DNA from: Owenia fusiformis
Taxonomy: Eukaryota
Length of the DNA stretch: 64,000 nt
Reading direction: 5' to 3'
Assembly (NCBI GenBank): GCA_903813345.2
Contig: CAIIXF020000001.1
Span: 14,260,001 to 14,324,000, forward strand
A model generated the notes under the pieces. The model saw nothing but the letters and a program-made list of their open reading frames with translations. It was not told where the DNA came from and did not search any database. The position numbers and the translations under genes are program-made. Position 1 is the stretch's first letter. Each line of letters starts with the position of its first letter. This document shows, piece after piece, positions 1-60,169 of the stretch.

Positions 1-139
1 ACTTTAAGGACCCTATATGCAGAAGGTACTTGTATGCAATATATGCATGCAGTGTGGAGTTGCTATATTTGGTACTTAGTTATATTCTTTACAGTCTCAA
101 TACACAAGTAATGTACAGTTACTAGTTTAGTTTAAAAAT

Positions 140-1780
140 ATTTTATTTCTGTGTCACACTGGTTAACTAAAATATTACAAGTAAAATACATGTGTTAAAA
201 AACCCAACAGCCGACATCGGCTTATGAGACACCACATAAATATACAAAGATAATCAATAGAAAAATATAGCATTGGTATGTCGAATAATATCACAGAGGA
301 TGTAAAGTAAGTTTGCAGAGTGTGAACAATTCATAGACAATATGACTAGAGTTAAATAACATACAATATAAACATGTGATTTCAAGATGCAATAAATGAG
401 AATACAGTAATTATGACTTTGGTTGATAACATTGCACATATTTAATTTCACAAACGTTTGAAGTTAAATAAACATTTTGAGAACATTTTAAATAAGGTAC
501 TTTAACTTTGGCTTCCTGATACAACATGTCTCTTAATTCTGTATAATGTGAACATTTAACACGAAAATATAATTCATCTTCAACTTCATTTGAGTCACAC
601 AATTTACACTTCCTTTCTAATAAAGGTGTGTTATTATACCTTTGTGTCTCAACATTAAGTTGAAGGGACCCAGTTCTAAAGCTAGCTAGAGTTTTTCTAT
701 GATGTCTTGGCATGTAAATGTTATTATAATGTTCAGTTACTACTCCGTACTTGAACTGTCTATATGTCCTCAGTTTATTACTATTGACTAGGTTATGTTG
801 ATCATTCCAAATATTTGTAAGAAATGGATCAGTTTGTTGAAAATAATCACTCATTTTTCTCATGAAGGGTTTACATGGGGTTTGTGTCCCTAAATGTTGT
901 TCAAGGCCTGCTAGTTGTATTATGTGCTGTGTTCTGGAATCCCAGCTTGAGTGTCTTTTTAGAGACCATTTGTAGATCTTATGGTTCAATCTGTTGGGGT
1001 TCATGTTTCTGAGTCTAATAAGGTGGCGTACACATTCAATTTTCTGTTTGTCCTTTGCTTGTGTCCAACCTAAATCCCCTCTTACTGCTTCATTGCTGGT
1101 CTTTGTCCCAACTCCCAGGAAAATCTTTCCAGCTCTATTTTGCACTTTGTTAATACAGCTATGTTTTGACAGCCTAACAATTGAGGATCCATAGTTAATA
1201 ATAGGCTGAACCATGGTGTCATACAATTTGTTATACACTGAGAGATCCATTCCACATAACTGTTTATACTCAGAGATTATAACTCCAAGGGCACACTTTG
1301 CTAATTTGGCTATTTCTTTTGCAGTTTTATTGTAATTGATATGTTTATCTAGCCATATACATATAGGTATTTATAGGTGCTAGCATATGATAATTTCATG
1401 TTGCCACAGTTGAATTGATGATTACTACGGGGTTTTGAAGGTGGGCGATAATGTACTATTTTGGACATTCTCTGGTTGATTTTCATTCTCCACTTCCTGC
1501 ACCGTGTATTTACAGTGTCAATCACTCTCTGAAGGTCTTCTGCAGAGCTGGCTATGAGGGCTATGTCGTCAGCATATAAAAGTATTGAGACATTAGTGTT
1601 GTCTGTATTGATCCCACAGTTCAGTTGTTTTACTTCTGCAGCTAGGGCATTCACATAGATCGCAAATATTGTCAGAGATAATAGACAGCCTTCCTTCGAA
1701 ACCTTGCTGATGGTAAACCAGGGTGTTAAATATCCATTGACACGAATGGCTCCAGATACATCCTGATATAATGATTTAAT
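140..1780 (-). mobile_element. Degenerate 5'-truncated non-LTR retrotransposon (LINE, RT C-terminal half plus 3' UTR)
   Basis: ORFs 1349-1654 (LLYADDIAL, YKYL) and 411-1250 (KLRTYRQFK...ERKCKLCDSNEVEDE) are consecutive parts of a LINE ORF2 broken by frameshifts; boundaries approximate. Confidence 0.85.
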
Positions 1781-2727
1781 TCATAGCCGTAGGGACCGGG
1801 GGTTCGATGGGTTCGGACGAACCCCCGGTCTTGATTTCCCCCAAAATATATTTGTGGAAAAATTCATTGCAATAACCAGAAAAATATATTCAATTTATAT
1901 GACCAGTAGATAAAAAATAATAAAGTTACACTTCTCTCCAAGTTTGGCAACATTAGGCACGGGGTGGTATTGTTTAATCTTGGGAAGACCCCGGAGCATC
2001 ATGACATTAAGCAAAAAAAAGAAATATCAATTATTTCGCACAATTTATTTTCCAACTTAAAAGGTGCTCCATCTCCGGTGAAATAAACCAACTGTCTACA
2101 TACTGATGAAAACACATTTCCGTCTCCGTCTTGCTTTATTTCAAACAAAAAATTCTTGCTAAGTCGCCGGGGCTGATAAGTCCCCAAGAGCAAATATTAG
2201 ATAATAGAAACATTTTCACCTTCCGTTTATGATCTAATCCGTGGTAATGAACTTGTTGACATTACCACGAAATATAACTGATCATATCAGTAAAAATGGT
2301 GACCTTACCCTGCAGAAATGGAGATAATGTTCCACAGCTATTTCTGAGGGTGATACAACAGCGCCCAGTCTCTAGGGAATTGATTTTACTTTCCAGAGAT
2401 AACAAATCTATACCTGGGCATAGTGTGGTTCTAAAGCCTTAGCGAAGTAACCTCCTTTGCTTACATTTGCCAAACCGTAAATAATTAGTTATTAAAGAGA
2501 CTCTATTGAGACTTCTCTGTGGCATTTTTTCTTTATTCCTTTTTGTTTTGAATTTTTAACACCATAACATTAACTAACTACTCAATATGCAACTTTTCAC
2601 CGCGTAGAATTTTAAAATATTAAGTTTGAAAATTCCATTTTTATAATGGAGCTCAATGGGAAAAACTACATAATTTGAACTATTTTCAAACGTAGCGGCG
2701 CGATTTTGATCAAATTGACAGATATAA

Positions 2728-4171
2728 CTAGAAGATTGCAAGCAATCTTACGGAGGCCCCGTAGGCTTTTTTTGAACATTTAAAGGTCAGCCAAAGGTCA
2801 AATCTTAAATACAAGGACATATATGAACTCCAGGCATCTTGTAGATGATTTTTAAAAAAAAGTTTGGTCAATTTGAAGCAATGTGAAATTTGACCTTGAA
2901 AAATTTCAACATTAGACCTTTTTCAGTTTTTGAGGTCCAATATCCCAAAACTGGTGCAGAATTTTAATAGATAATCAATTGTTATTATGTGTAAAACCTT
3001 TAGAGGAATATATATCCTGACTTTAATTCAAAAATATTGATTTGTAGTCACAAACTTTGAGAAACTTAGAAAACACAGTTTGTGATCTTGTTTGATGACC
3101 TTGACCTTTGACCTTACAGGTTTTACTTTTTTAGACCTCAGTATATCTTTTCTGATTGAAGAAACCTAAATTTGAATCCAGAAAATCAATTTGAAAAATT
3201 AACTTTTTTGACATTTGAAGGTCACTGAAGGTCAACTAAAGGTCATAGTTCAAAACTAAGGTCAGATTTGAGTTCCTGAGATCTTGTAGATGCTTTTTAA
3301 AAAAAAGTTTGGTCAATTTAGAGCAAGTTGAAATTTGACTTTGAAAAATTTTGAAATTTGACATTTTTTCAGTTTTTGAGTTCTAATATCTCAAAACTGG
3401 AGCAAAATTTTAATAAATAGTCAATTGCTAATATGTGTAGAACCTTTAGAGGAATATATATTCTGACTTTCAGTAAAAAAAATTGATTTGTAGTCTCCAA
3501 TTTTGAGAAACTTAGAAAACACATTTTGTGATTTCGTTTGATGACCTTGACCTTTGACCTTGCAAATTTTACTTTTTTAGACCTCAGAAGATCTTTTGTG
3601 AATAAATATACCTAAATTTGAATCCAGAAAATCGATTTGAAAAATCAACTTTTTTGACCTTTCTGGGGTCACTGGAGGTCAACCAAAGGTCAAAGGTCAA
3701 AAGTAAGGTCAGATTTGGAATCCTGAGAACTTGTAGATGAGTTTTAAAAAAAAATTTGGTCAATTTGAAGCAAGTTGAAAAAAGACCTTTTTTGACCTTT
3801 TTTTGACCTTCAATATCTCAAAATCTAGGCAAAATTTCTCTAGACGGCAAAAGGCTAAGACTAAAAGAATACTAATATCTATCTGTGTGCAAAAATTCAG
3901 CCAAAAATATTTAAGTGTAGTGTCAGGATTTGAGAAACTTGAAAAAAACTTAGATTTGACCTAGATTTTGACCTTTGACCTTGACCTAGATAAAAATTCC
4001 TTTCCCGCCAAGTTCAGCCCAGGTCCCTAGTAGGACTATGTAGTACCTAGTTGAAAGGTAGTTGGAAGTAGGAGAAAAAGAGGGAGGAAGAATAAATAAT
4101 AAAGAATAAAGAATAATAAAGAATAATAATATCTACAAAATTGATAGGAGGCCCCCCGATGGGGCCTCCTA
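2728..4171 (+). mobile_element. Helentron-associated (HINE/DINE-1/pearl-like) non-autonomous element with internal ~445-bp tandem units
   Basis: Starts AACTAG...GGAGGCCCC; internal tgacct/aggtca-rich units (ggtcaattt.gagcaa at ~2866, 3311, 3757); AATAA-type microsatellite ~4090-4130; terminal palindrome ATAGGAGGCCCCCCGATGGGGCCTCCTAAT. Confidence 0.65.
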
Positions 4172-4324
4172 ATAAATATTGGCAAGACAAAATGTTTGAT
4201 GGAAAATGAAGAAAATTCACCGTCCTGGTTACGCAAACTATAGAAAAATCTGAAATAATCATAAAAACCTGTAAAAATAGATTGAAGGGGGTGATATTCA
4301 TTTTTAATGTGCCTTTCACTACTA

Positions 4325-5241
4325 CAGGGTAACCATAATTTTGGTACTGATTTGATTTTTCAATGAAAATCATTTCTATAGTGTATAGTCAGTTTAAATA
4401 ATACAATTGGTATATTTCTTTACTGAACAGTGCAATCATTTATTTATTTATCAACAGTAATGCAAACTACATATTATACAGTTAGTAAAATATTAAAATA
4501 ATTATATTAAAATTAAAGCATTGCCAGTGTGTTGACAGCTGGCAAAAAATGAAGAATTTGAAGAAAAATAGCCACCCAAAGACACTTACACCTGCTAATT
4601 GCCACTTTGCAAAGAGTTTATTCAAGCAGGAAAACTATTTGGAAAAACGTAATTTCGGGTTGAACATGGTACCCACCACTCTGGTTACCTTAGCAACCAT
4701 CTCTCAAGAACCAATCAAAATTGAGGTCCCAAAGGACCTTATACACCCTCCATTGGGATCTCCCCATGAGAAAAAATAATTCATCTGATTTTTCAAAATG
4801 AGTATTCTGCTTTAATTATTACATTTATATGCACACTAGTATCTTGTTGACCTATATTCAGCACTGTATTGATGTATAGGCCACTTATTAGGGTCATAAT
4901 TCAATCATGAAGTGTAGAGGCATATGATTCCAAACCAGGAAGTATTTTTGTGTCTGTCAAAATCCATTTGCATCCTACGCATCCCTACATCTTATCCAAA
5001 TATGTTACTACATAATGAAATAAAATAGTATATTCTTTGGTTTTACAAAGTTGTATGATTTTTGATAAGTGTAAAAGTTGTTTTTGGAGCATTTTTCTAT
5101 AGCCATTTTGTAGGGAAAAAATGATGAAAAAATGATGAAAAAATGTACAATCTTTTAATTTTAAGTATGACCTGAATCGATTGCAAACTTCATATTTGCA
5201 AATTTGATGAGATAAACCATTAGTCATTTAGGGTTACCCAG
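4325..5241. mobile_element. Non-autonomous TIR element, Tc1/mariner-like
   Basis: ta|CAGGGTAACCATAA ... TTAGGGTTACCCAG|ta imperfect inverted ends flanked by TA; no coding capacity. Confidence 0.45.
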
Positions 5242-6108
5242 TAGTTTACAAGCTGACCTTTGCAAAATATATTTCACTTACTATCCTCATTCGCTATCAC
5301 GCTATCTAGTTTCTTTCCAAATTGGCCTGGATTGCCTGGTTTATTGGTTTTAGCGAACCGTCCATTTCGTCGAACCATCATTTTGCTAAGGTTGTTTGTG
5401 ATGAATATACAATATTCAGTTACATATAACTGTACAGCAACTTTATGCAAGGGAAGGTAATTGTGTGAGAGCACATAAAGTACATGAAGTATTGACCCAC
5501 TTGTCTCAGTGAATCTTATAAACAGTGCATAAAGTTTTTTCTATGCAATGATTGGCTCACAGTTACTTATAGTGTAAGTTATTTTATTTCTATACAGTGT
5601 AGAATAGAGGGTATAAACTTTTACAGTTTCAAGCAGGTTTTAGTGTTTTCTGACCAATGATATATTCAGACTTATTCATTTCACGATTATGTAATACTGA
5701 CCTACATATCTGTATAACATATCTTTAAGTACAGATTATTTTTTATTTCCATTTCAAAGAAAGAACAAATAGGTCTTTTCAGCACTAGGAGTTTTTTGTT
5801 GCAAGGCATTGAAATTTAAAAGAAATGCTTAATTTTAGCGCTTACGGAGCGCATGAGGTTGAGCACTCTTCTATTAAAAAATGAAATAAAAATCTTTTGA
5901 TTTTGGAATCTTTTCAAAGAATTCAATTAGTACTAATCTTAGTATTAAAGTGTGGGAATTACATGTTTCAGAATTTGACATATCTTTGAATGCCTTGAAC
6001 CCTAAAGAATGAATTAGGAATGAGGATTTCAAAACAAAATAGCTCGTTAAAAATATGTTCCTTAAAGATATGTTAGGATTTGCCCTTAACAAAAGTTAGC
6101 TCAATGTA

Positions 6109-8017
6109 TTTTTTTTTTTTTATTATTATTATTATTAAATTTATTTCAATAGAATACAAAAAATGTAAATACAGACATGTAAATTCTTAAATCGCCACAA
6201 TGGCATTATATAAGAATAGGGGGCAGGTGGAAGTAGAAGTGGCAGAGCAGGCAGGGTCTTGGACTAGGGCAAGTGTGACGGGACTTGAGGATACTAGAGA
6301 TGGATAAGAAGGAGGGAATTAGCTATTGTCTTTGATAAAATTAACAATGAGAAGTAGTATTTGGGAATTTGCATCTATGTTTAATTTGGGAATTCCTGTT
6401 TTCAAAATAGCTATGAAATCAGTTTGAGAGAGCTTATGACTGAAGATGTTTGGTTCGAGATCAGTGAGTTTGTCCATGAATTGCTGTCTTTGTATAGTAA
6501 GTAAGTCACATTGAAAGAGAAAATGTTTCAGAGTTTGTGGTTTTCCACAAGTGCAATTAGGGCTGTCAATAGACTGAAAGTTGTGAGCGTAGAACTGGGC
6601 TTTGAAGTATAGGTCAGCTCTCACTTTATTGAGAACTATTTCTTGAACCCTTGTTAGATTAAGCTGGCTTGTTGACAAAATCGAGGGCGTTTTTTGGAAA
6701 TGTACTCTTTGGTGTTTTTTAAAATTCGAAAGAGTATTCTTAGATTTAATAGCAGGTGGAAGATTGATCCAATTTGAAATTGCAGCTGGTATTGCTGAGG
6801 TGGAGAATCTATTTGAGCATCTAATGGGCATTTTAAATGCTTCATTATATCTCAATACTCTGTTTGCATGGTTTCTAAATTTGTCAAAAATATCAGTTAC
6901 ATAGGGAGGACTTGTACCATTTACAATTTTGAACATAAAGTTGTTAATCTGGATACTGCGTCTTGATTCAAGAGTTGGCCAATTGAGTAGGTTTAAAACC
7001 TTTTTTGAACTGCTCCCTTGGATACACCCAGAACAATAAAGTGCAGCTTTATAATAAAGACTGTCGAGTCGTTGTAATAGGAACTTTGAGGCTGTGCTGT
7101 ACATGATAGCACCATAGTCAAAATGGGGTAAAATAAAGGACTTAAATATGGTTTCTAGATGCTTACTACCTAACTTATATTTAAGTTTCTTTAAAGGGTT
7201 CAACATTTTTCGTATTTTTGATATGATTTCTCCAATATGCTTGTCATATGATAAGCTTGGGTCAAAAGTAAATCCCAGATGTTTGTGCTCGTGATCTCTG
7301 GTAATTTCAACATTGTTTAACTTTGAAACAGAAACATTATCGACTTTAGATCTGGATGAGTGGAATATCATTTCAGAACTCTTTTCAGGTTTAAACTCCA
7401 ATTTCCAGGTGTCAGACCATTTTTCAATTTTAATTAGGTTAGATCTGGCTATTGCATCTACTTCTTGTGGATGCTTAGGGTCAAAAGGATGATGTAGAGA
7501 AGTGTCATCCGCATAAATATAGCAATGCCCCTCCAGATTGTCTGGAAGGTCATTAATGTATAGGAGAAATAATATTGGCCCAAGTATTGAGCCCTGGGGG
7601 ACACCACAATTGATAAAGTCATTTTCAGAATAATTTGAAAGTTCCCCAGATATCTGTACAGCAATTTTTCTGTTAGTAAGGTAAGATTTGATAATTTTTT
7701 GAATTTGCCCTTGGAAGCCATATGCTGAAAGTTTATGAAGTAGTAGCTTATGTGGTACTCTGTCAAATGCAGCCGCTATATCTAGAAAAATTGTTTTGGA
7801 AGCTTTTCCTTGTTCAAATGTGCTCTGAAGAAAATGTTCAATCGATAAAAGTTGATGAATAGTACTATGACCTGGTAAGAATCCGGACTGATGTTTGAAA
7901 AGAAGATTATTGTCAATTAAATGCTTCCTGATTCGATCAGCTAAAACTTTTTCAAATACTTTAGAGATACAGCTTAAAAGAGTGATAGGTCTATAATTGT
8001 TGATGTTTGATTTGTCA
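6109..8017 (-). mobile_element. 5'-truncated CR1/L2-group LINE, near-identical to the copy at 51878-55033
   Basis: RT motifs ([16 protein letters not shown]), C-terminal CTCG...HFLFQC, (TAA)n/polyA tail at ~6109-6136; I counted only about six substitutions versus the 51878-53774 segment. Confidence 0.95.
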
Positions 8018-8030
8018 CATTTGATTTGTC

Positions 8031-9156
8031 ACAAGCTTCGACACATTGATTTGTCTTACAATAAAATGAACAAAATGCCCATTACTATGTTCAGTAAGTC
8101 GAATGCTCTAATAACAATTAACCTAAGTGGCAACAATCTTAAACAGTTGAACATTGACGTCGAAGAAGCAATAAACTTGGAAAAATTGGACATATCAAAT
8201 AATCAATTTTAAAACTTTGCCAACAAATGTTCAAAATATTATTGACCGTTCAAATAAAGTCTCAAATGTAACATTGCAAGTTGGCCTAAAAGGAAACCCA
8301 CTTGTATGTGGGTGTAATTCGTTCGATATCATAGCCTGGATGAAAGACCACAGCAAGAACATAATGCAATGGGACAAATTAGAATGTACATATTTTAATG
8401 ATTCCAAAGTTAAAATGCATGCCATCCATTTGGATGGATTGAAATTTTCATGCTGGAAATCTGTCATATTGGCAGGGGTGATACCCTCTGGAATCATGCT
8501 ATTGTTTGTATGTGTAGTGATTCTTACATACTGGAAAAGATACAAACTGCACTACTTGTACTTACAGCTACGAGCTGCATTGAAGCGACACGACAAAGAA
8601 AACGATGCATTTGATTTTGATGCATTCATCAGCTACAGTTCACTTGATAAAACATGGGGCCAGGAAACATTGTATGCAACTCTAGTAGGCAATCATCACT
8701 ACAAAATATGTATTGATGATCGAAACTTCCGACCAGGGGCTTTTATCTCCAGCATCATAGTTGATGCTATCAACAGAAGCAACAAAGTCATTCTCATCAT
8801 ATCACAGAACTTTCTCCGTAGCAAGTGGTACACTTATGAACTAAACATCGCAAGAGGAGAACTGGCAAATAGGGGGCGTGATTGCATAATCCTCATTCAA
8901 GGAGCCAATTAATGTCCTTCCAAAAGAATTAATCACCCCTACATTGCAATCACTTCTAGACACACGGGTGTACCTGGAGTGGAGTGATAATGCAGACAGA
9001 CAAGCTTTGTTTTGGAGGAAGCTATGTGATGCCCTAGGTGATCCTGGACCACAAAATGAGGAGCAGGGAGGCAGTGAATATACAATGCTTCAGAATGAAG
9101 AGGATGAACAACTGGTACAAGACTTTTTAAGAGAAAACAGACCACTATTGGAATGA
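8031..9156 (+). pseudogene. Toll-like receptor pseudogene (last LRRs, LRRCT, TM, TIR), tandem paralog of the intact TLR
   Basis: Colinear with 16311-17436; +1 frameshift/stop at ~8210 (ttttaaaact vs ttccaaact), 2-nt deletion at ~8897 (attcaagg vs attctgaagg), 5' half missing and joined to a LINE. Confidence 0.93.
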
Positions 9157-9239
9157 CATTTCAAAATGCAAGAAATGGTATAAATACATGAAAGTGATGA
9201 AACATGTATATTTTCGAACTACTGTACATGAAAATCAAA

Positions 9240-9796
9240 AACATGTACAGGTAATTGTGTTATGGAATACTCAGACTGCTAAATATTTATCAACTTATTC
9301 AAGAACATGTATTAGTAATTGTTATCGGAACAGAGAGACTGCTTCACATTAATTAACTTATTCAAGAACATGTATTGGTAATTGTTTATAAGGGCCATGC
9401 CATTCGACCGAAATTGGTCTGAACCGCGAACCTTTGCTTGAATACTGGTATTCGGAACTTTCATATCATGTTCCGAAGGGATTCGGAACAAACATCTGAA
9501 CCTTACCTACTATTGGCTTTGAATTGTTAATATCTCAGTCCAGTGTTTACCTGGTAATGTTTCCTTCATTTATCAACTTATTCAAGAACATGTATTGGTA
9601 ATTGTTTATGGAATACCCAGACTGCTAAATATTTATCAACTTTTTCAAGAACATGATTTGGTAATTGTATGAAATACAATGACTGCTACATAGTTATTAC
9701 CTTATTCAGGAACATGTATTGGTAATTGTTTATGGAATTAAGAGACTGCTTTACATATATCAACTTATTCAAGAAAATGTCTTGGTAACTGTTTAT
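9240..9796. repeat. ~63-bp minisatellite downstream of TLR pseudogene, first part
   Basis: Unit aagaacatgtattggtaattgtttatggaatacagagactgctacacatttatcaacttattc; interrupted by unrelated sequence ~9390-9565. Confidence 0.85.
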
Positions 9797-12195
9797 ATAT
9801 TTATTTATTTTTATTTATTTATTTGGAAAACGCTTTTTTGAGCAGCGGCACTCAATCGGTGCATCCAATACATCATATATAAAATATAAATGGGATAAAA
9901 CATATCATGCAAAAGGCCACTAAAAACATGCATGTGACTATTGTGTGCACTGTACATGTATTTTCTTTAAAAACAATTTGACATATTTGTCAAACTTCAC
10001 GTAATTATCATGTCCCCACAAGATTAAAGTTTCATCTCCCAGAGCCCAACATGTTTTTAGTTGTACACTTCCTGCTAGAAAGTCAGAGGAGAGTTGGTGG
10101 TTGCAATTTGACACAACATTATTGAAAAATACATTCCTATCACTACCAAAGTAGGGACAGACAAAAAGTCTATGCTGTATAGTATCTTTAACATTGAGGT
10201 TACAAAAGAGACATATACCATTGCCTTGACCCCATCTTTGAAGGTCGGAGCGAAGGCCAAAACATCCCGTTCTGGCCATGAATTTAAGTTTATGACCATA
10301 GAAATCAAAGTCTGAGTTCATATAATTTTCCTTAGAGAGATTACTTTTCAAACATTTGTAAAGATTTAGGGATGACTTCTCCCCTATTGAAGAGAAGAAG
10401 GCTACATGGCTTAAATCATTTGAGATCTGGATGTATGTTTTATACCAGTTATCATCCTGCCTTTGAAGGATGCCATCCAGACCATGTTTTATCAGGATCT
10501 CCTGAATATTGGCAAAATAGGGGAAAGCTTTGCCTTCCTGACCATTTATGTATTTGTTGTACAATGTGTTGAAGATAGCTTTGTGAACTGACCCTTCTTT
10601 AATAGAGTGCTTTAAATATAAAAAATAATCGATTTGACGTTTTTCAATGACATCTAGAATAGGTCTTAATCCTAAATCTCCTAACAATGCCTCTCTTGCA
10701 GGGCGGCATCTAAGCTGGAGAATGGCTCTTGCTACATTGTACTGCATTGATTTGAATTTTTTGCAAGTTGTCTTATTCAGAATCAAGGTGGAACATCCAT
10801 GTAATAAGGCTGGCAAAAACATTGTATCATGCATTTTAATTCCGAATTTGACTCGCATAACATTGCAATGCTTGGTTAAGGTTGAACTTATCATTCCTTG
10901 TACTCTTTTTGATTTAGAGCTTAACATATTATTTATGTGGAAAGAATCCTTCATGGACCTGTCAATATGTATACCCAAATATTTATAGTTCTGAACTTCG
11001 GAAATATGAGTCCCCCAAAATCCAAGTTTTTTGCTTATCTAGACGTTTTCCTACTATCATAACTTTTGATTTTTTTAAGCTAAATTTAAATCCCCATTTG
11101 ATTGAGAAATTATCTGCAATTTTTAACATTTTGTTTAAACCCTCTTCATTGTCAGCAAGTAGTACAATGTCATCAGCAAACATTAGAGCTGGGATTTTTT
11201 GCCCCTCGAAAGGAATGCCTGTTGATTCTTCTTGGAGCATTTCAACTAGTTCTGACATTACAAGGGAGAATAGGGTCGGGGAAAGACAGCAGCCTTGCTT
11301 TAGGCTATTAATGGAACTACTTTCTTCCCAATTAGTTGAAATTGATCCAAATATAACTTTATTTTGAACACCATTGTATAGTTGCCGTAGGAGTCTCCAC
11401 ACTTTACCCTGAATCCCTTTCTCCCATAATCGAATGAATAATAAGTCCCTATTTACAACATCGAATGCCTTGGATATGTCCAAAAATGCTAGAAATGTCT
11501 TCCCATTGTTACTTTTACGCATACTGCAGAGGCCCTTTAAAGCAAACAAATGGTTTTCCAATCTTAGCCCTGACCGAAATGCACCTTGCAGATCCCCAAG
11601 TAGATTGTTATCTTCACAGAACTTAATGATTCTTGTTTCAATTACAGAGGTAAACAGTTTATATACATTTGAATTGATAGTTATTCCTCTATAATTGTCC
11701 AAAACTTCCTTATCTCCATTTTTATGAATTGGGAACAGGAGACCCTCTTTCCATTCTGAGGGCATTTCCTCTCGTAATTTGACAAGATGAAAAAGATCAT
11801 GGAGTGAATTTACTAATAAAGGCCCCCCCTGTTTGAGAAATTCATTAGGACTTTGGTCAGTTCCGCAAGCTTTGCCATTGCTCAAGCCTTGAATAAGTAC
11901 CTGTATGTCACTAGGATTGAAACATACTTCGAACAGGGCATTATCGGAGAATTGTGATGATGAAGCTAGATCGTTAAGTTTTATAGAATAGTCGATTTTG
12001 GCAGAATTCATGTTAACATTGTTGACCCCTACATTTCTCCAGTATCCGGCAATTATATCAGAGACTTGTTTAGGATCAGTAATGATATTATTTGGGTCAT
12101 TGGGATCTTTTATTTGTATTGGGTGGTCTGCTTTGGTGTTGAACATTTTTAAGGTCTTCCAAAATGACTTAGAATTAGATTTCTTATATTTCTTA
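9797..12195 (-). mobile_element. 5'-truncated LINE (RT domain plus C-terminus) inserted in the minisatellite
   Basis: ORFs 10983-12320 (NYRGITI, FLDISKAFD, LKQGCCLSP, LMFADDIV) and 9938-10978 joined by one frameshift at ~10985; (TAAA)n tail ~9797-9825; the N-terminus of the listed ORF is minisatellite read-through. Confidence 0.92.
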
Positions 12196-12822
12196 TTATA
12201 AAACAGAGACTGCAACACATTTATCAACTTATTCAAGAATATGATTTGGTAATTGTATAGCATACAAAGATTGCTACATTTTATCAACTTACCCAAGAAC
12301 ATGTATTGGTAATTGTTCATGTAATACAGAGACTGCTACACATTTATCAACTTATTTACTTATATTCAGGAACATGTATTAGTAATTGTTTATGTAATAC
12401 AGAGACTGCTACACATTTATCGACTTATTCAAGAATATGATTTGGTAATTGTATAGCATACAAAGACTGCTACATTTTATCAACTTACCCAAGAACATGT
12501 ATTGGTAATTGTTTATGGAATACAGAGACTGCTACATATTTATCAACTTATTTACTTATTCAAGAACATGTATTAGTAATTGTTTATGTAATACAGAGAC
12601 TGCTACACATTTATCGACTTATTCAAGAATATGATTTGGTAATTGTATAGCATACAAAGACTGCTACATTTTATCAACTTACCCAAGAACATGTATTGGT
12701 AATTGTTTATGTAATACAGAGACTGCAACATATTTATTTACTTATTCAAGAACATGTATTGGTAATTGTTCATGGAATACAAAGACTGTTACATATTCAT
12801 CAACTTATTCAAGAACATGTAA
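12196..12822. repeat. ~63-bp minisatellite, continuation after the LINE
   Basis: About ten further units of the same monomer, with a higher-order alternation of variants. Confidence 0.9.
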
Positions 12823-13153
12823 TGTTTTTAAAATTTGTATTATGGGATACCCATAAGACCAATTGAAAATACCTGAAAACACAAAATTTGCAGATCATTG
12901 ATGCAGAAAATTTGAATCTCAAGCAAGATTTGAACACCTGACACTTATAGTTCCCATCAGTAATATATAAGTAATAATTTAAACAAGGAATTCAAAAACA
13001 TGTGAACATTCCTGATTGCATCACTTGATGTATGGAGCTGAAGCAAATGTATAAAATCATACAAATGTATTTTTTTCTGACTGACTCAACACCTTTCCAT
13101 TTCCTTATGGGTAGTACCATGATATACCAGTATGAGGTCATAATGACCTATAT

Positions 13154-13452
13154 CAGTGGCGTAGCGTAGGTATTTTGTGAGTGTACGCCGCGAGTAAGTG
13201 AAATATACATGCTTTGAGGGAGGTTCGGGGGAGGTCCCCCCAAGAACAAAAAGAAAGTGAAAAATAAAATAAGATAGCATTTGAAGCGTTCTGGGGCGTT
13301 TGAAATACGAAATTCCGACTATTATGGACGAATAGAATGTAAATTATTAGCCATTTTTGAAGTGTGGGGCAAATCAATATAAAAAATTAACTGTTTTCTA
13401 AATTTTGAGAGTACGCCATGGCGTTTTATGCGTATATGACGCTACGCCATTG
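13154..13452. mobile_element. MITE with CAGTGGCGTAGC TIRs and apparent 5-bp TSD
   Basis: tatat|CAGTGGCGTAGCGT...ACGCTACGCCATTG|tatat; absent from the paralogous site at ~19655. Confidence 0.85.
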
Positions 13453-14009
13453 TATATACTATGACAATATGCATACAGCAATAAATAAGTGATGAAGTAT
13501 TCCTTAATCATGGTCATTTATTGGCTAAAATTCTGAGTCAATTGGGATTATGACAAAAATCGTAAAATAACACACATAAAAATGGCCACTATTTTCAAAA
13601 TGGTCGCTCATTGGCCATATTGTCATAAGAAAATGGTTGCCAACTAAACAAAGTGTCATAAGACAGTGTGCCTTGCTCATGAGTATTCACATAACATACA
13701 GGTTTCATATCCCATACACTCCTGGAAACAATGAAACAATTAGCCAGGCTTGTGAGTGGTAAGTTGTGTAATATCCCCCAATCAATAGAAACATTCATAT
13801 CTACTGAAATTTTATGACTGACAGTACAAAGTTACAATTAGATTAATTTTATCTCCATTTCAATTGCCCTTCCTTCACATGACATGTGTTGGTTGGGGCT
13901 TGCATGTTTTCCTCCAGAGATATCCTCGTGGTTTTCCTGAAGGAAGTATTCAGAGAATGTTCATACAATGAAATAGAAAATAGCAACTCCACAGATTAGC
14001 AAATCCAAC

Positions 14010-14857
14010 CAAACAAAACATGTTTTGATAAATAGTGGCTTTCTTGAAAATTGCTTCTTCAACAGAGTTCCTTTGTCTCTACGTAACAGCACATAAAATT
14101 TGAACCAAAGCCTTTCACTGGTATTTTCATAAGATATGAACCAAATCTGCGACTGGTATTTGGGTTATCAAAGATTACATTTCTAATGACAAATAGTGGC
14201 CATTTCGATAAATATGTTAGTAGCCATCTGGAAAATTTCTTCTGGAGCAAAGCTCCTCCTTTATATCTAGGCATCAGCGTATAGAACTTGAAACAAATCC
14301 ATTCACTGATATTTGAGTATCAAGATTACGTTCTTTTACAAAAAAATAGTGTCCATTTTGAAATTCAGCTGCCATATTAAAAGTTCCTTCTCATACAGAA
14401 CTCCTGTGTACCTAGACATTGCATGTAAAATTTGAACCAAATCTGTCTACTGGTTATCAAAAATTACGTTTTTAATTAAAAATGGTGGCCATTTTGAAAT
14501 TCAGTGGCCATCTTTAAAATCTCTTCTTAAGCAAATCTCCTTTGTCCCTTGACATCAGCATATAAAATGTAAACCATATCCATCAACCAGTATTTGAGTT
14601 CTCAGAGGTTAAATTTTTAACTTATAATGGTAGCCATTTTAAATTGAGTCAAGCCATGTTTAAAGTTCCTTCACAAGCAGAGGTCCTACATCCAAAAGGC
14701 ATAAACATATACAATTTGAATCAAATCTGTTGACCAGTATTTGAGTTATCGCCCGGACACATGAATAAATGGAAGAACAGAAAAACAAATGGATGGACGA
14801 ACAAATTGATGGTTGGCTTCTCTGTATCCCTACGAACTTTGTTCGGTGGGATAATTA
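14010..14857 (+). mobile_element. Degenerate HINE-like element just upstream of the TLR
   Basis: ~150-bp internal repeats (aatttgaaccaaatctg...tggccattttgaa), GGAC/GGAT microsatellite-like tract, terminal hairpin tatccctacgaactttgttcggtgggata. Confidence 0.5.
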
Positions 14858-15117
14858 TAACCAAATGTCAAAGATTGTAATGAGGAAAAATTGAATGCAA
14901 TAAGGTTCCTTACATGCATTCAAACAGCCAAATAATTAGGAAACAATATTAACCAGATCCTTCCAAAAGTCATCATGTTATATTTGTATTAAGGAAACTG
15001 TCATTATTGAATAAAACTTGTCACTTATTCTTCATATAATAAGATTAAAATTTGATTAATATCAACATTACATTTGGTGGACTGATGCGTTGCAACTATT
15101 ACAGTCGGGAAATCACA

Positions 15118-17436
15118 ATGTTATTTGAACTATTTCTCATATGCTTTATTTCCACCCTACAATATGACGATGTTGCAGGGGTGCAGAAATATGAAAACTC
15201 AACTAGTCTTGGGTGTAACAAGTGCAAATGTAATGGAACATTTGTGGATTGTGCTAATGTTAAGCTGGACTATCTACCAGGAGACTTCCCATCAAACATA
15301 ACTGGTCTTAGTCTTGCCAAGTGTGGACTGACAGCATTGAATGATACAGAGCTTGGGACGCTTTACAAACACTTGAGGCACCTGGATATTCGAGACAATA
15401 AAATTGCTGAATTAAAGAATGCTACATTTGCTGGACTGAATGAGTTGGAATACCTAGATATGGGAGGAAACAAATACAGAGCTGATAAAATAGATCCATT
15501 TGTATTTAGCTCACTGCCTAATATCTTAGAAATCATAGTGAGAGGATATGGAAATTATGACCAAAACAAGGATCTAGAGCGGAACGTTTCGAAAGCTTGG
15601 TTCGACACGTTTAAAGGACTGGAAAATTCAACAATAGAAAGAATCACTTTTGACGCTATTACAGTGAATCCCATTATCCTTGAGAAAGACATCTTCATTC
15701 CATTAAGTAATACAAAACTTAAGTATCTTAGACTTTATAATATAAGATTAGTGGAAATTGATATGAATAGTCTCTTGTATCTTCCATTTCTTGAGGAAAT
15801 AGACATATCAATGAATAGTCTACAAATGGATCTTAGATATCTAGATACTTATAGAAATTTGTATAATTCTAAACTCAGGCATGTCATTTTCCATGATAAT
15901 GTCCAAAATTATAAACCACAGAAGCACTACGAACTTTTACCAGAATTTATTGCAAAATTCTTTACAATAAATTTCCCTAAAACTATAGAGGAGATCAACT
16001 TTTCCAAATCGACTATGACCCGTGGTGTCGGATGTTATATGTCATATGGATTCAAACTTGAAAGAGATAATGCAATAAAAAAATTTGATATATCCAATTT
16101 TAAATTAATGCAGAGACTCGGTCCTATGCTGGGACTAGTTCATTTAAAAGAATTTTATCTACAAGGTATAGGTTCTGAATTGTTTCCATCTACCGTCACC
16201 TGTGATAATGGAGCATTTGAATCTATTGAAATGCTGAACATGTCACACAACTTTATGAATTTGAGTGATAAAACCATAAACGATTCATTCAAGATGTTCA
16301 CAAACTGCACAAAGCTTCGACACATTGATTTGTCTTACAATAAAATGAACAAAATGCCCTTTACTATGTTCAGCAAGTCGAATGCACTAATAACCATTAA
16401 CCTTGGTGGCAATGATCTTAAACAGTTGAACATTGACATTGAAGAAGCAATAAACTTGGAGAAATTGGACATATCTAATAATCAATTCCAAACTTTGCCA
16501 ACAAATGTTCAAAATATTATTGACCATTCAAATAAAGTCTCAAATGTAACATTGCAAGTTGGCTTAAAAGGAAACCCACTTGTATGTGGGTGTCATTCAT
16601 TCGACATCATAGCCTGGATGAAAGACCACAGCAAGAACATAATGCAATGGGACACATTAGAATGCACATATTTTAATGATACCAAAGTTAAAATGCATGC
16701 CATCCATTTGCCTGGATTGAAATTTTCATGCTGGAAATCTGTCATATTGGCAGGGGTGATACCCTCTGGAATCATGCTGTTGTTTGTATGTGTAGTGATT
16801 CTTACATACAGGAAGAGATATAAACTGCACTATTTGTACCTACAGCTACGAGCTGCATTGAGGCGACATGGCAAAGAAAACGATGCCTTTGATTTTGATG
16901 CATTCATCAGCTACAGTTCACTTGATAGAACATGGGGCCAGGGAACATTGTATGCAACTCTAGTAGGCAATCATCACTACAGAATATGTATTGATGATCG
17001 AAACTTCCGACCAGGGGCTTTTATCTCCGACATCATAGTTGATGCTATCAACAGAAGCAACAAAGTCATTCTCCTCATATCACAGAACTTTCTCCGAAGC
17101 AAGTGGTGCACTTATGAACTAAACATTGCAAGAGGAGAACTGGCCAATAGGGGGCGTGATTGCATAATCCTTATTCTGAAGGAGCCAATTAATGTCCTTC
17201 CAAAAGAATTAATCACCCCTACATTGCAATCCCTGCTAGACACACGGGTGTACCTGGAGTGGAGTGATAATGCAGACAGACAAGCTTTGTTTTGGAGGAA
17301 GCTATGTGATGCCCTAGGTGATCCTGGACCACAAAATGAGGAGCAGGGAGGCAGTGAATATACAATGCTTCAGAATGAAGAGGATGAACAACTGGTACAA
17401 GACTTTTTAAGAGAAAACAGACCACTATTGGAATGA
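15118..17436 (+). CDS. Toll-like receptor, single cysteine-cluster type, intronless CDS (~772 aa)
   Basis: Signal-like MLFELFLICFISTL, LRRNT (CNKCKCNGTFVDC), LxxLxLxxN repeats, LRRCT (GNPLVCGC...C...C), TM (VILAGVIPSGIMLLFVCVVILTY), TIR (FDAFISYS, DDRNFRPG, FWRKL). The start Met could be 15085 or 15118. Confidence 0.96.
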   Translation: MLFELFLICFISTLQYDDVAGVQKYENSTSLGCNKCKCNGTFVDCANVKLDYLPGDFPSNITGLSLAKCGLTALNDTELGTLYKHLRHLDIRDNKIAELKNATFAGLNELEYLDMGGNKYRADKIDPFVFSSLPNILEIIVRGYGNYDQNKDLERNVSKAWFDTFKGLENSTIERITFDAITVNPIILEKDIFIPLSNTKLKYLRLYNIRLVEIDMNSLLYLPFLEEIDISMNSLQMDLRYLDTYRNLYNSKLRHVIFHDNVQNYKPQKHYELLPEFIAKFFTINFPKTIEEINFSKSTMTRGVGCYMSYGFKLERDNAIKKFDISNFKLMQRLGPMLGLVHLKEFYLQGIGSELFPSTVTCDNGAFESIEMLNMSHNFMNLSDKTINDSFKMFTNCTKLRHIDLSYNKMNKMPFTMFSKSNALITINLGGNDLKQLNIDIEEAINLEKLDISNNQFQTLPTNVQNIIDHSNKVSNVTLQVGLKGNPLVCGCHSFDIIAWMKDHSKNIMQWDTLECTYFNDTKVKMHAIHLPGLKFSCWKSVILAGVIPSGIMLLFVCVVILTYRKRYKLHYLYLQLRAALRRHGKENDAFDFDAFISYSSLDRTWGQGTLYATLVGNHHYRICIDDRNFRPGAFISDIIVDAINRSNKVILLISQNFLRSKWCTYELNIARGELANRGRDCIILILKEPINVLPKELITPTLQSLLDTRVYLEWSDNADRQALFWRKLCDALGDPGPQNEEQGGSEYTMLQNEEDEQLVQDFLRENRPLLE

Positions 17437-17519
17437 TATTTCAAAACACAGGAAATGGTTTAAATAAATATATGTAAGTGATGAAACATGTATATTTTTG
17501 AACTCCATGAAATTCAAAA

Positions 17520-17995
17520 TCATGTACAGGTAATTGTGTTATGGAATACCTAGACTGCTTTATACTTATCAACTTATTCAAGAATATGTAATCGTAACAG
17601 TAAATGGAATACCAAGACTATATATACATCAACTTATTCCAGAATATGTAATTGTTATTGTAAATTGAATACCCAAGAACATGTTTTGGTATTTGTTTAT
17701 GGAATATAGGGACTGCTACACATTTATCAACTTATTCAAGAAAATGTATTACTAATTGTTAATGGAATACAGAGACTGCTAAACATTTATCAACTTATTC
17801 AAGAACATGTATTGCTAATTGTTTATGGAATATAGAGACTGCTCTGATTTATCAACTTATTCAAGAACATGTATTGCTAATTGTTTATGGAATATAGAGA
17901 CTGCTCTGATTTATCAACTTATTCAAGAACATGTATTTGCAATTGTTAAATGAAATACATACTGCTACACTATTTATCAACTTATCCAAAAACAT
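17520..17995. repeat. ~63-bp minisatellite downstream of the intact TLR
   Basis: Same monomer as 9240-12822; spacing 62-63 bp (e.g. 17762, 17825, 17887). Confidence 0.9.
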
Positions 17996-18334
17996 GCTTG
18001 CCTGGTAGCCAGTTTTTACCAAGGGAGAGTTTTTTGAAGAATGTTTTGGCTAAAAAATCATGCAAAAGTGCTCAGAATGGTGAAAAAATATCTAGCCAGG
18101 AGTACCCTAACCTTGCTCAAGTCTCTTTTACTCATCTTGATTTCTACTAAGATTGATTGATTTCTCAATCGGACACCCGGAGGTGAGATGATTTCAACAA
18201 GAAATGTTGAAAAGATCACTGAAATGATCAAACATGATAGCTATACGATCTAGGCTGAGAGATTCCGATCAATCACTGAATCATATCGAGGACTATATGG
18301 ACTAGGTCTTCATGAATTTTCATCGCAAATTTAA

Positions 18335-18899
18335 GGAATAAATAATGATAGGCCATTCAATATGGTGAAATTCAGCACGAGTTGGACAGAATGTTGTACA
18401 AAGCACGAACCGAAGGTGAGTGCATTTGTACTAACATTCTGTCCAACGAGTGCTGAATTTCACCATATTGAATGGCCTATCATTATTTATTCCGATTCAA
18501 ACATAAAAATTAGTAAAAGCCGTGTCTGTGGAACGGGCATGAAGGAAGAATACGCATATGCTGTCAAGATTCTGAAGTCGGCCGGAAAAAATTTAGAATT
18601 TGTTTGGGCTGTTCTATTTTACTCCCCGTTAAATAAGACTAGTTCACCGGCTGCAAACTTGAAGTCAGCCATAGTTAAATAGTTACAGTAGTTACGGAGG
18701 GAGTAAAAAAGAACAGCTATCCCCGGACAGAGCCCCAGATGTGCAGCTGAGATGTGACGTCACTCAAAACAATGCAAATTGCAGATTGAATAGAGCATGG
18801 TCGTGCATCTATGGAGAATTAGAGAACATTCTATATTGGCTATGCTGCATTCTGATTGGTTCGAGAATTTCGAATAGAGCACGGTCATGTTTGAATCAG
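18335..18899. mobile_element. Hairpin-type interspersed element, copy 1
   Basis: ~75-bp stem 18335-18493 around CACGAACCGAAGGTGAGTG, then gattcaaacat ... tctgattggt ... atgtttgaatc inverted repeat. Confidence 0.7.
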
Positions 18900-20291
18900 T
18901 TTTAAATCAACATAAAATCGCATGATTTAATTTATATTAATGCCTGCTTACATTCCACTGTACATTTAATGACAGAATATATTGTAACTGAAGAATTGCT
19001 CTATCAGATCATTGAAAATTTCAAGTCATAGACAAGTAGTTTGCTTTGTTCATGCAGGTAAACCTGATAACGTTTTAATTGGTCAATCAGCCTGAAGTCA
19101 GACGTCGTGTCCACATGATCTTGCCTATCAATACGGTTTCGCAATACCCCTGACAGCACAGGAATTATGGAAATCTCGAAACTGCTGAATAACTTATCAT
19201 AGTATCAGCGATGATGCATTGGATAGTACAAGGCGGTAATATATCAAGATCAGATAAGTAAAAAAAAAATACTGACTTGGGCAAGGCTAGGACGACCCAG
19301 ACTGCTACATATTTTTATCTACTTATATTCAATTTCATATAATGTTTATAGAATTTGTTTCATGGGATACCCATTAGACCAATTGAAAATATCTGAAAAC
19401 ACAAAATTTCTCAAGCAAGATTTGAACACCTGACACTTGTAGTTCCCATCAGTAATATATATAGGTAATAATTTAAACAAGGAATGGTTAACATGACTCA
19501 AAAAATGTGAACATTCCTGATTGTATGCATCTATAGCAAAGTTTACACCAAATTTAAGTGTTTCCGAGTGAGTGATTTGAGCTATCACTTTTTTCTAGCT
19601 CAACAACTTTGAATTCCTTGTGGGTACTAACATGACGTATGAGGTCATAATCACCTACAAACTATGACAATATGCATACAGCAATAAATAAATGATGCTG
19701 TATTCCTTAATCATGGTCATTTATTGGCTAAAATTCTGAGTCAATTTGGATTAGTCAGTACACATGCCAAACTAGACAACATCAATGCCGAAAGCAAATC
19801 CTATCAAACAGCCATCGCTGGCACTTTTACAAAATCCTTCTACTACTTTTTCAGTAATAGCAAAAATCGTAAAATAACACATATAAAAATGGCCACCATT
19901 TTCAAAATGGTCGCTCATTTATAGCGAAATTGTAATAAGAAAGTGTAGTAATATGCTTCTAAGTTGGTACATATAAAATTTCAACAAAATCACAAACACA
20001 TACTTATAAATGGCAGCTATTTTTTAAATATGCCATCATTAAGAGTGTTCACATATCAAATATGAAAAATATAAACAAAATCACTCTTTTACTTTTTGAG
20101 TTAAAGTAAAAAACAAAAATTAATGCTGGACTAGGGATGGGATGGGAATGGCATGCCAAAGGGGAAACTAGAACATGCTTGAATATCAGTGTGAGGTCGG
20201 GTATGGCCATGTAAGCACCTCCTGCTGTATACTCCCTGCCCATATGCAAGCATAAGTGCCATTTAGATACTATAAAGAAGGCATAACTCAC

Positions 20292-23200
20292 CACATAGAA
20301 AAGCACTTGTGTACTCCAAACTGTTCTCCTCGCCCCATTTCCACTGGCTCTCACTGACTTGACTGATGATGAAGAATATAACAGTCATGGCAGCACAGAT
20401 CAGTGTGGACAACATCAGGAACTTGAATCTGTAGATCAGGCCCTAAGAACCACAACCAGATTTACAGATAGCAATTGCATTTAGTTTAATTCAATAGTAC
20501 ATTGTAAATAGGAAATTACTATCTTTAAGTGCACTCACATAGATATATTTCACCTCACTATCTTACATGTCAACTCACCATGTTATACTTCAACTCACCA
20601 TATAACACTTCAATTAACCATGTGATATCTAACTCAACATATAATACTTCAATTCACCATTTAAAATTTCAACTCATCATATAATACTTCAACTCACCAT
20701 GTAATACTTCCTCCTGATCGCACTCATCTGTGGCAAAGAATTTTTCTTGGCACCAATGTTTCTGAAGACCTTGAAGATCATATAGCAGAGGAAGATGAAG
20801 TACGTACAGGCGGCAATACCAGCCAGAACCACAAAACCAAGCTAGCGAAATGTTAAGGCTATTTACATCTTCAACAAATATATTGGACTGTACATAATTA
20901 CCCTTTACATTCGTTTGACTTCACTTCTTAAAAGAGAGCTTCGTCTTCACTCTTTCAAACTAAAATAAACGTATGAACTCACCGCGCCAATCAGTGTTTG
21001 TCGGCCAAATTTGACCGATGTTCTATATATGGGCATTCCTTCTGACGTCATCGTTGAGCCCGGAACTGACCAATGACATGCACATATTTAATTAGAATGC
21101 ATTTGGCGTATGTTTCTTCAAGCTCGCTGGTTGGTGGATGAAAGGTCAGCACGTAGGTCAGAAGTGATTTCCTACCCAAACTGTCACCGGTACCGGTCCT
21201 GGGGGTGGGGCTGCTAAACTATAATATGGTCTCTACTAGGCAGAGTGTAGTTTAACTAGACTCTGCACGCAGGGTAGTACATAATAGGGCCTATGCAGGT
21301 GGTGCAGAACAGAAAACATTTTTGGGTAGTATATACACTATGTACAGCTGTACTCTACAGCAGAAATCAATCTTAATTATTTTTATGTCATATTCTAATT
21401 CATGGATTTTTTCAGAGCATCAATCTCAGTATGAAATGTGAAGGCGCATTATTTACCAAGACTCCGCTTAACTCAGTCTCTGTAAGTTAATTGAGCTTCT
21501 TTATCAATCAAGTAAAGCTAATGTGATTCTTTGTGGTAATATGTTATGATTAAAGGATACAGCCAGCTTGGATCCCGCGTCAGTGCTCCAGATACTGTAG
21601 AATGGATTCGTCAGCTGGACACCCCTATAACATTAGTAAGCCCATTCAATCATGTAAACAAAATGGCCAAAAATTTGATGAAAAAAGAAGGAAAGAGAGC
21701 AAACGATCCCCTGTTGTATCAAGACCCTATTTTCATGCAGATATGAGCTTCTATTTGATCAGTGTATGACTATTAACTAATAGTGGACCACTTTTTGAGA
21801 TACCAAAGGTGTTCCATTTACAGAGATTTTTCCGTATTCATGGTATATTTAGATGATTGAAAACTTTATTGTGAGATTAGCGAGTTGAAGCCCATGATAT
21901 AAGCGCTGTTAAGCGCATAAGTGTTAATGAAACAAAACCTTTAAATTCAATAATCAAAAATGTCTAAAACATTTTAGTCATGAGAAAATAGTATTGAATG
22001 ATTAATCATTATTTTCAACTTGCATGTAATATTTTAAGTGGCTTGACACAGTAATACAGCTGAATGGAATCAATACAATATAAGCTTTTTAAGATATCTA
22101 GATACCTACCTTTCACACATTTCAAAGACAAACAGGCAAATGCAGCCAAAGAGAACAGCACTAAGATGTTTCCAGTATTGTACAAGTCGACTCCTCTCTA
22201 CCTGGTCCTGTAAGAAAAACACATATGCAATCGCTTATAATGATTCAATCTCAGGACCTATGGTTTTGGATTGGATTGCTTTATAAGACCCAAGAGCCCA
22301 AACATACTTCTGGATTTTGAAATAAAATTGGAGCAACACTATATGTTTTAATCAATGGTCAAAACCGATATCTCATACATATTTAATTTTCCCCTTTTCA
22401 TGTGATTATGACTCATAGAACAGCATCTTTCATTCCCCTTAGTTTGCTTAAATAAACAGAATCATTAGCTATAGTAAGCAATTGGCTGACTCACCATCAT
22501 ATGTTCGCCACTGAATATAATCCAGAAGCACATGAGGAAGGAGTAGAAGACACCCTGTCTAATGTCACTCAAAAGCAACATGAAGGGGAAGTCAAACCAC
22601 AGGGTGAACCACTCAATAGGCACTGAAATAAGAGCAAATGAGATTAGTTCTTTCATATAAGCATTGGCAATGCATTGCTACAATTTTACAGCAATATGTT
22701 GAAATGAAAGCAAATAAAAGCAAATGAGATTAGTTCTTTCATATAAACTTTAGCAATGCATTGCTACAATTTCACAGCAATATGTTGAAGTGAAAGCAAA
22801 TAAGAGCAAATGAGATTAGTTCTTTCATATAAACTTTGGCAATGCATTGCTACAATTTCACAGCAATATGTTGAAATGAAAGCAAATAAAAGCAAATGAG
22901 ATTAGTTCTTTCATATAAACTTTGGCAATGCATTGCTACAATTTTACAGCAATATCTTGAAATGTGGGTAGCATCAAAGGAAATCTAGAGGGAGTCCTTC
23001 ACTGTATCTTCAGCAAGTGTCACAGTTTTGATAGTATTTTGCCCCTAAACATGTATGCTCCAACTGAGTGGAACAGTTGTTGTATCTTATTGATGAAGGG
23101 GACTGCTTTTATGCAAAGCTTTTATGTTAGTTTATTGTTGTATACGTGTAGCATTATACTATACAAGGTAGAGGTGTCAAGTATTAACCGGTTAACCGGT

Positions 23201-59460: not shown

Positions 59461-59850
59461 GCACGTGATAAAATATGAGAAATATCTTAAAGGTACTATC
59501 TCTACTGAGGATGTGCTTGAGATAAATGCATGGCTTGAGAAACATCTTAATGGTACCATCTCTGGTGAAGATTTGCATATGATAAATGCATGGCTTGAGA
59601 AACATCTTAAAAGTACCATCTCTGGCGAAGATGTGCATATGATAAATGCATGGCTTGAGAAACATCTTAAAAGTACCATCTCTGGCGAAGATGTGCATAT
59701 GATAAATGCATGGCTTGAGAAACATCTTAAAAGTACCATCTCTGGCGAAGATGTGCATATGATAAATGCATGGCTTGAGAAACATCTTAAAAGTACCATC
59801 TCTGGCGAAGATGTGCATGTGATAAATGCATGGCTTGAGAAACATCTTAA
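59461..59850. repeat. 60-bp minisatellite, ~6.5 copies
   Basis: gataaatgcatggcttgagaaacatcttaaaagtaccatctctggcgaagatgtgcatat repeats in register with the 60-nt lines. Confidence 0.97.
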
Positions 59851-60169
59851 TCACTTTGAAACAATTAAAAATTAAACTTTTGATAAATTGGCATACTGAA
59901 CTAATATGTTAGGGTTCCCAATGAGACACAATTGCAAATAATTTGTTGAAAATATTGGTGAACACGTACCCATTTCTCAGAAAAGTGACATCATATACAA
60001 AAGGGTAATTCTTCGTGTAAAAAACATTCCTGTATCTTGAATATTAACATGCAATATTTGAATCATGATAAAAACTTGTTGCTTGTATAATGTTCACATT
60101 GTGCTTTTACTTTTCAATACCAAGAAATTGGATGATACAGTTATACCAAATATTCCTGTTTTGAACTAA

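Follow-up and report, generated by a model that had tools for sequence, protein, structure and literature searches.

We analysed a 64,000-nt stretch of the Owenia fusiformis genome (contig CAIIXF020000001.1, positions 14,260,001 to 14,324,000; hereafter the window) that carries the Wnt-secretion gene Wntless (WLS) on the minus strand and a Toll-like receptor (TLR) gene with a decayed relative on the plus strand. We consider it likely that WLS occupies the window as far as its exon 12 and is completed beyond position 1, and that the intron of more than 20.3 kb behind exon 12 holds the antisense, tandem-duplicated TLR. The two genes would then be an ordinary nested pair near the 3' end of WLS.

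The WLS gene was delimited with P0001, a 548-aa protein named wntless on a 62.2-Mb contig, which is the only annotated O. fusiformis WLS found (a cluster of one sequence from one contig). Pfam assigns to it a GOLD domain followed by a transmembrane domain (WLS_GOLD, PF21883, 3e-55, residues 58-239; WLS-like_TM, PF06664, 5.5e-74, residues 240-510), and the human WLS chains 7drt_B and 7kc4_B of solved structures match its residues 1-514, the YAPSHK motif included, with E values of ~4e-169 (3.9e-169). A tblastn search of P0001 against the window placed 12 pieces in collinear order within 32125-20292 of the minus strand, and the exon borders were set by a script that searched for GT/GC..AG sites reproducing P0001. 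The resulting 12 exons are all separated by GT..AG introns and translate into P0001 residues 1-489 without a mismatch, with one base left over.

32125-32020, 28952-28806, 28172-28026, 27453-27329, 26712-26533, 24700-24564, 24323-24283, 22622-22495, 22207-22110, 21624-21561, 20841-20698 and 20442-20292, minus strand: WLS exons 1-12 (splice-site search, match to P0001).
20291-20286, minus strand: GTGAGT donor of the phase 1 intron after WLS exon 12 (read directly; RNA junction reads depart exactly here).

Introns 1-11 measure 3067, 633, 572, 616, 1832, 240, 1660, 287, 485, 719 and 255 nt, and exon 7 (24323-24283) is only 41 nt long. The 50 residues encoded by exon 12 at 20442-20293 (minus) are 100% identical to P0001, and the exon ends in ...TSAFLC followed by the first base (G) of a Gly codon. 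The first-pass annotation, made from the letters of the window, had read the same exon end, TSAFLC-G, with the same clean donor at 20291, and its statement that introns 2-11 are all shorter than 2 kb agrees with the range of 240-1832 nt obtained here. It had also stated that WLS continues with G.YGMWN.YV...YAPSHK; P0001 and two other WLS proteins do go on after exon 12 in this way (GVYGMWN.YV...YAPSHK).

No complete exon for P0001 residues 491-548 was found on either strand of the 64-kb window by tblastn, whether the query was the whole of P0001 or its residues 480-548 by themselves (word size 2, E up to 100), and no terminal WLS exon lies in 17436-20291, between the TLR gene and exon 12. Since the last 58 residues of P0001 are absent from the window, we place the remaining coding exon or exons beyond position 1, which would make the intron that follows exon 12 longer than 20,291 nt. 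These exons would encode the last transmembrane helix and the tail. The core of the first-pass proposal, a >20-kb WLS intron enclosing an antisense intronless TLR and a decaying duplicate, is therefore supported by a C-terminal coding sequence that is present in P0001 and absent from the window. Its claim that the next WLS exon is missing between 20291 and 1 holds for a complete exon, but it overlooked a 31-nt relic of an exon start at 13721-13691, described below. The intron indeed holds the TLRs, but it may be the penultimate rather than, as had been stated, the last intron of WLS, if the next exon is a 31-nt micro-exon.

The guest gene is oriented opposite to its host, both TLR copies being on the plus strand, and overlaps no WLS exon: exon 12 lies upstream in WLS orientation, and the downstream exon is placed beyond position 1.

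15118-17436, plus strand: intact intronless TLR gene, 772 aa (open frame 15049-17436; Met at 15118, upstream Met at 15085).
17463-17468, plus strand: AATAAA, possible poly(A) signal (pattern search; 27 nt past the TLR stop).

The predicted protein has the layout of a TLR, with an N-terminal hydrophobic leader, leucine-rich repeats (LRRs; Pfam LRR_8 1.4e-16, LRR_4 1.3e-14, LRR_1 1.9e-07), an LRRCT-type CxC motif, one hydrophobic transmembrane stretch and a TIR domain (Pfam TIR 6.4e-16, TIR_2 9.4e-16; query residues 594-728). The putative transmembrane stretch between the LRRs and the TIR domain (...VILAGVIPSGIMLLFVCVVILTY...) was read by eye in the translation and aligns with its equivalent in the annotated O. 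fusiformis paralogue P0121. The TLR aligns with P0121 from end to end at 49% identity (residues 33-771 versus 43-782). Its two best matches are O. fusiformis proteins from other contigs or chromosomes (48-49% identical), and no match above 49% identity was present among the proteins of 424-1350 aa in a collection of 5.8 billion proteins. Because no close public match exists although other O. fusiformis TLRs are present in that collection, the intact TLR appears to be missing from the public annotation.

A second TLR copy precedes the intact gene in the same orientation, is truncated at its 5' end and abuts a LINE (long interspersed nuclear element) fragment. The following elements define the copy and the repeated segment to which it belongs.

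8027-9385, plus strand: 5'-truncated TLR pseudogene with its 3' flank (tblastn in three frames; covers residues 420-795 of the intact copy only).
6112-8017, minus strand: 5'-truncated LINE copy with a reverse-transcriptase domain, abutting the truncated TLR (99.4% identical to 51869-53774).
17541-17996, plus strand: 63-bp satellite 3' of the intact TLR, also found 3' of the pseudogene.
9235-9796, resuming at 12187-12824 after a LINE insertion, plus strand: 63-bp satellite 3' of the pseudogene (repeat and similarity searches).
12783-13640, plus strand: end of duplication unit A (12783-13021 resembles 19299-19526, 75%; 13458-13640 resembles 19661-19950).

The coding part of the pseudogene (8027-9153) keeps the TIR domain (Pfam) but is disrupted by an insertion of 1 nt at 8211, a deletion of 2 nt near 8898 and a single stop codon in the aligned frame. 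The DNA of the two copies is 92.6% identical over 1359 nt (8033-9385 versus 16312-17661). Over 367 aligned codons they differ by 26 synonymous and 20 nonsynonymous changes, i.e., a synonymous divergence pS of 0.114 and a nonsynonymous divergence pN of 0.023 (ratio 0.20). This ratio, together with the 99.4% identity of the LINE at the truncation point, indicates that the broken TLR was constrained during most of its existence and became a pseudogene recently. The open frame of the intact copy and the same pN/pS of 0.20 argue for a functional TLR, which would serve as a pathogen sensor, have a promoter of its own and be silent in the material sampled. At the 3' end of the TLR coding sequence, ~200 nt (17245-17444 versus 8965-9164) are 99-100% identical between the copies, compared with ~95% elsewhere; this near-identity may reflect gene conversion.

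Gene, satellite and flank stand in the same order in both units, which form a head-to-tail duplication of a segment of ~6.3 kb. The expanding and decaying TLR cluster that the first-pass annotation had envisaged is thus intronless and antisense, and one of its copies is decaying; the cluster is, however, a small one, for the plus strand of 1-20291 holds one intact open reading frame and one truncated, frameshifted copy, or 1.5 copies.

The head-to-tail unit bears on the history of nesting through a short WLS-like sequence beside it.

13721-13691, minus strand: relic of the start of the next WLS exon (31 nt), with acceptor AG at 13723-13722 (tblastn; sequence read).

The tblastn search with the missing C-terminus gave one weak match (13722-13678, 9/15 identities, E 0.11) with two stops. 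RNA joints land on this match, which speaks against a chance hit. The acceptor AG sits behind a pyrimidine tract and is in phase with exon 12; in that phase the relic reads GVYGI*NLYV, with Ile and a stop where P0001 has Met and Trp. As Met and Trp each have a single codon, two differences between the relic and the true exon are forced, both of them G-to-A. The minimum divergence of the relic, 2 of 31 nt, is like that between the TLR copies (~5% in the coding sequence; pS as above). Directly 3' of the relic on the minus strand stands GTGAAT (13690-13685), and the 50 nt past the relic do not encode the continuation of P0001, which favours either the border of a micro-exon or a breakpoint at this place. 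No second copy of the 31-mer was found in the window at up to 7 substitutions. Because the homology ends sharply before a GT, the sequence suggests that the true next WLS exon is itself a 31-nt micro-exon, which would make the TLR-bearing intron the one before the last; a breakpoint inside a longer exon, followed by filler DNA, is the alternative.

The relic lies ~50 nt past the end of the unit A homology, where a new duplication unit would begin. In the proposed model, the duplicated segment started right after the initial 31 nt of the next WLS exon, took in the TLR, satellite and flank, and stopped ~340 nt short of exon 12. The TLR would then already have been inside the WLS intron when it was duplicated. 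Unit B (~13641-19950) would then start with the 31-nt relic and contain the intact TLR, and unit A (8027-13640) would contain the TLR that was long constrained and subsequently truncated at a young LINE insertion and frameshifted.

We further assessed the locus with sequencing reads. Four of 24 runs (X3, X6, X21, X23) were mapped on 845-20844, which was divided into 30 bins. The runs X21 and X23 consist of raw, stranded RNA reads and were sampled to ~6% and ~12%. X3 and X6 are labelled 'RNA?' but were taken as DNA only, given that all 30 bins are covered, the exon 11-12 joint occurs in no contig and the loose ends resemble transposase adapters. Contigs of X3 and X6 span the relic (13562-14026 with 2 other letters and 13574-13936 with 1 other letter). 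Because these DNA-like contigs cover the relic with so few differences, the relic is real, and the X6 library contains one or both of its defects.

RNA reads on the WLS exons are found only in the first-mate-on-plus orientation (last bin, 38.1 versus 0 and 36.2 versus 0.41 in the two runs), and the exon 11-12 joint was seen in 54 reads of X21 and 43 of X23. A joint from 20292 to 13721, canonical GT..AG on the minus strand, was carried by 64 reads of X21 (35+29) and 26 of X23 (1+25), all in WLS orientation and in two forms that differ by a synonymous single-nucleotide polymorphism at 20293. The shorter side of this joint is at most 30-32 nt long, so that the match breaks off at 13691. With both runs taken together, its read count is close to that of the exon 11-12 joint (90 versus 97). 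Most likely, these junction reads come from the true exon outside the window, whose first 31 nt are similar, since transcripts derived from the relic would all carry a stop. Whichever their source, the exon-12 donor is spliced. Termination by read-through just after exon 12, which would have spoken against the nested arrangement, left no sign in X21 and X23. The bin 19521-20187 has a depth of 11-13, which was not counted as read-through because, by estimate, several hundred reads that match 19-24 nt at 20044-20066 can explain most of it.

Hundreds of RNA reads join two pieces of 23-24 nt, 13562-13585 and 20044-20066, to each other or to 14477-14495, and then run into unlike sequence. The joints 13585->20044, 14495->20044 and 20066->14477 and the loose ends at 13562 and 20066 were rejected as WLS or TLR splicing on account of their short sides (19-24 nt) and non-canonical ends; the short-match reads at 13562-13585 and 20044-20066 probably come from an expressed copy of a repeat elsewhere in the genome.

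TLR mRNA was not detected in the sampled ~6% and ~12% of X21 and X23, where WLS is expressed. Depth over the TLR body was 0-0.65 in WLS orientation versus 0-0.03 in TLR orientation, and that over the pseudogene at most 0.16. The sparse reads across the TLR body run almost all in WLS sense and look like WLS pre-mRNA. WLS would simply splice across the nested TLR, and the two genes are most likely functionally independent. The transcriptional interference put forward in the first-pass annotation is hypothetical; in the two libraries WLS is expressed and TLR-sense reads are virtually absent.

Several points weigh against this account. The true downstream exon was never seen directly, and nesting therefore rests on the annotated P0001 and on the absence of the exon from the window. 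The junction reads match the relic over exactly 31 nt and could be true relic-containing transcripts. TLR activity is argued from the open frame and pN/pS, and TLR-sense reads were not seen. The 5' half of unit A and the exon copy expected beside it are absent from the window, so the two-unit model is possibly incomplete, with more units or with deletions. The second of these points leads to an alternative in which cells do splice in the relic, as a cassette ('poison') exon of 31 nt, with the acceptor at 13722 and GTGAAT at 13690 as its donor. The in-frame stop after ...FLCGVYGI would make such a transcript a target of nonsense-mediated decay or yield a WLS without its last helix, and even then the TLR would be nested, inside an intron of 6570 nt shown directly by the reads. 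Joints that fall exactly on 20292->13721 with canonical GT..AG ends, a match that stops at 13691 right before a GT, a good pyrimidine tract, an acceptor that is transcribed before any exon further downstream and a host gene that already has a 41-nt exon are all as expected of a cassette exon. We nevertheless regard it as unlikely, because a joint about as frequent as that of exons 11 and 12 would leave nearly all WLS mRNA truncated, which hardly fits an essential gene with one annotated copy. In addition, Met-Trp in P0001 against Ile-stop in the relic implies an intact 31-nt copy elsewhere, the reads of which would map here with 2 mismatches, and no read extends past 13691 into the window (maximum side 30-32 nt). 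A shade less probable again is that duplication of the TLR unit created a decoy exon 6.6 kb past exon 12 that throttles or truncates WLS.

Other explanations dispense with nesting or with the relic. The TLRs would be neighbours of WLS, and not its guests, if this WLS copy had lost its 3' end or the assembly were wrong here, with the C-terminus of P0001 encoded elsewhere. The downstream exon was indeed not observed, LINEs, satellite and duplications, typical sites of assembly errors, are abundant, and no listed contig bridges the whole stretch. Against this, the window contains no N, DNA-like contigs of two other libraries reach into all 30 bins, and those listed for the TLR and the relic differ little from the window. 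Moreover, the exon-12 donor is spliced and not read through, exons 1-12 match the sole annotated WLS protein exactly, and the relic with its acceptor places WLS intron-exon sequence inside the duplicated TLR unit. We therefore do not count this WLS copy as truncated or misassembled, a caveat that the first-pass annotation had itself raised, and hold that explanation to be very improbable. Least credible is that 13721 begins the true exon and that A-to-I RNA editing recodes its Ile and stop to Met and Trp. Both differences are an A where a G is needed, i.e., in the A-to-I direction, but neutral decay at the observed divergence would yield two G-to-A transitions in 31 nt, and P0001 cannot reflect editing, since a genome-annotated protein is a translation of its DNA. 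The same codons read as Met and Trp in the invertebrate mitochondrial code, which was judged a coincidence in a nuclear gene.

The window holds further repeats, within the WLS intron and outside it.

52076-55153, minus strand: full-length LINE open reading frame, 1025 aa, with endonuclease and reverse-transcriptase domains (open reading frame and Pfam; the full-length element includes 51869-53774, the counterpart of 6112-8017).
9938-12335, minus strand: LINE-type reverse-transcriptase fragment inside the unit A satellite (open reading frame, Pfam, similarity).
411-1780, minus strand: further reverse-transcriptase fragment in the WLS intron (open reading frame, Pfam).

The 99.4% identity between LINE copies suggests that the family of the full-length element was active recently. 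Very high contig word-depth and RNA depth mark 18187-18853, with an inverted repeat at 18335-18493, and 2783-5513, with a 446-bp tandem repeat at 2783-3780; these are high-copy elements inside the WLS intron. In WLS intron 1, a 374-aa open frame on the plus strand (29913-31037) has no Pfam match, and its sequence resembles the C-terminal part of the LINE-type open reading frames of the window. Upstream of the WLS 5' end lies a large inverted repeat (33665-35514 and 37491-39299; 13 pieces, 80-99% complementarity, ~2 kb between the innermost arms), and plus-strand open frames at 39528-39875 and 40597-40797 look like exons of another gene. A tandem repeat at 59396-59908 has several open frames and encodes a recurring peptide of ~20 residues.

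Tandem TLR expansions of invertebrates consist of intronless single-exon genes duplicated in tandem, with pseudogenes among their members. The present locus resembles them in its intronless TLR, its tandem duplicate and its pseudogene member but differs in extent, with 1.5 copies here and the closest annotated paralogues (48-49% identical) on other chromosomes. We found no publication on this locus in the literature on O. fusiformis TLRs or on intron-nested, tandem-duplicated TLRs, and the passages of PMC10192322 considered here do not deal with it.

Nested genes are common, and the arrangement itself is ordinary. According to passages of the respective papers, nested structures include nearly 10% of the genes of D. 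melanogaster (PMC3814207), nesting typically arises from short young duplicates inserted into long introns (PMC5174743), and nested protein-coding genes in long introns occur in Drosophila and mammals (PMC3814207, PMC5174743, PMC8467205). Like the nested genes of those passages, the TLR is a short, young, duplicate-derived gene wholly inside a long host intron. Unlike them, it combines a Wntless host with a TLR guest in an annelid, its downstream host exon is inferred, and the guest was itself tandem-duplicated within the intron and carries a piece of a host exon. As described in part of PMC3933685, the LRRTM genes are nested in the alpha-catenin genes of vertebrates. They offer a parallel in that a gene for an LRR transmembrane protein lies inside an unrelated gene, but LRRTMs act in synaptic adhesion and lack a TIR domain. 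Both intronic L1 elements and nested genes can cause intron retention, exonization and cryptic polyadenylation, as a passage of PMC3192792 reports. The WLS intron similarly contains LINE fragments in both orientations, a nested gene and an extra acceptor open to exonization; in contrast to the case in that passage, WLS exon 12 is spliced at its normal donor, and premature termination was not seen.

What is new at this locus is the WLS exon relic and a TLR that is apparently unannotated. The relic is a clean scar of the history proposed above, in which the TLR would have been nested before it duplicated (pS ~0.11) and the duplication would have pushed the true exon away. The relic also sets a mapping trap, as a spare acceptor in front of the true one in an essential gene can attract both spliced reads and gene predictors. 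If, improbably, it were used as a decoy exon, immune-gene turnover would have imposed a direct cost on, or a regulatory link to, a Wnt-secretion gene. More generally, nested, silent, intronless TLRs such as this one may be missing from counts of the O. fusiformis immune repertoire.

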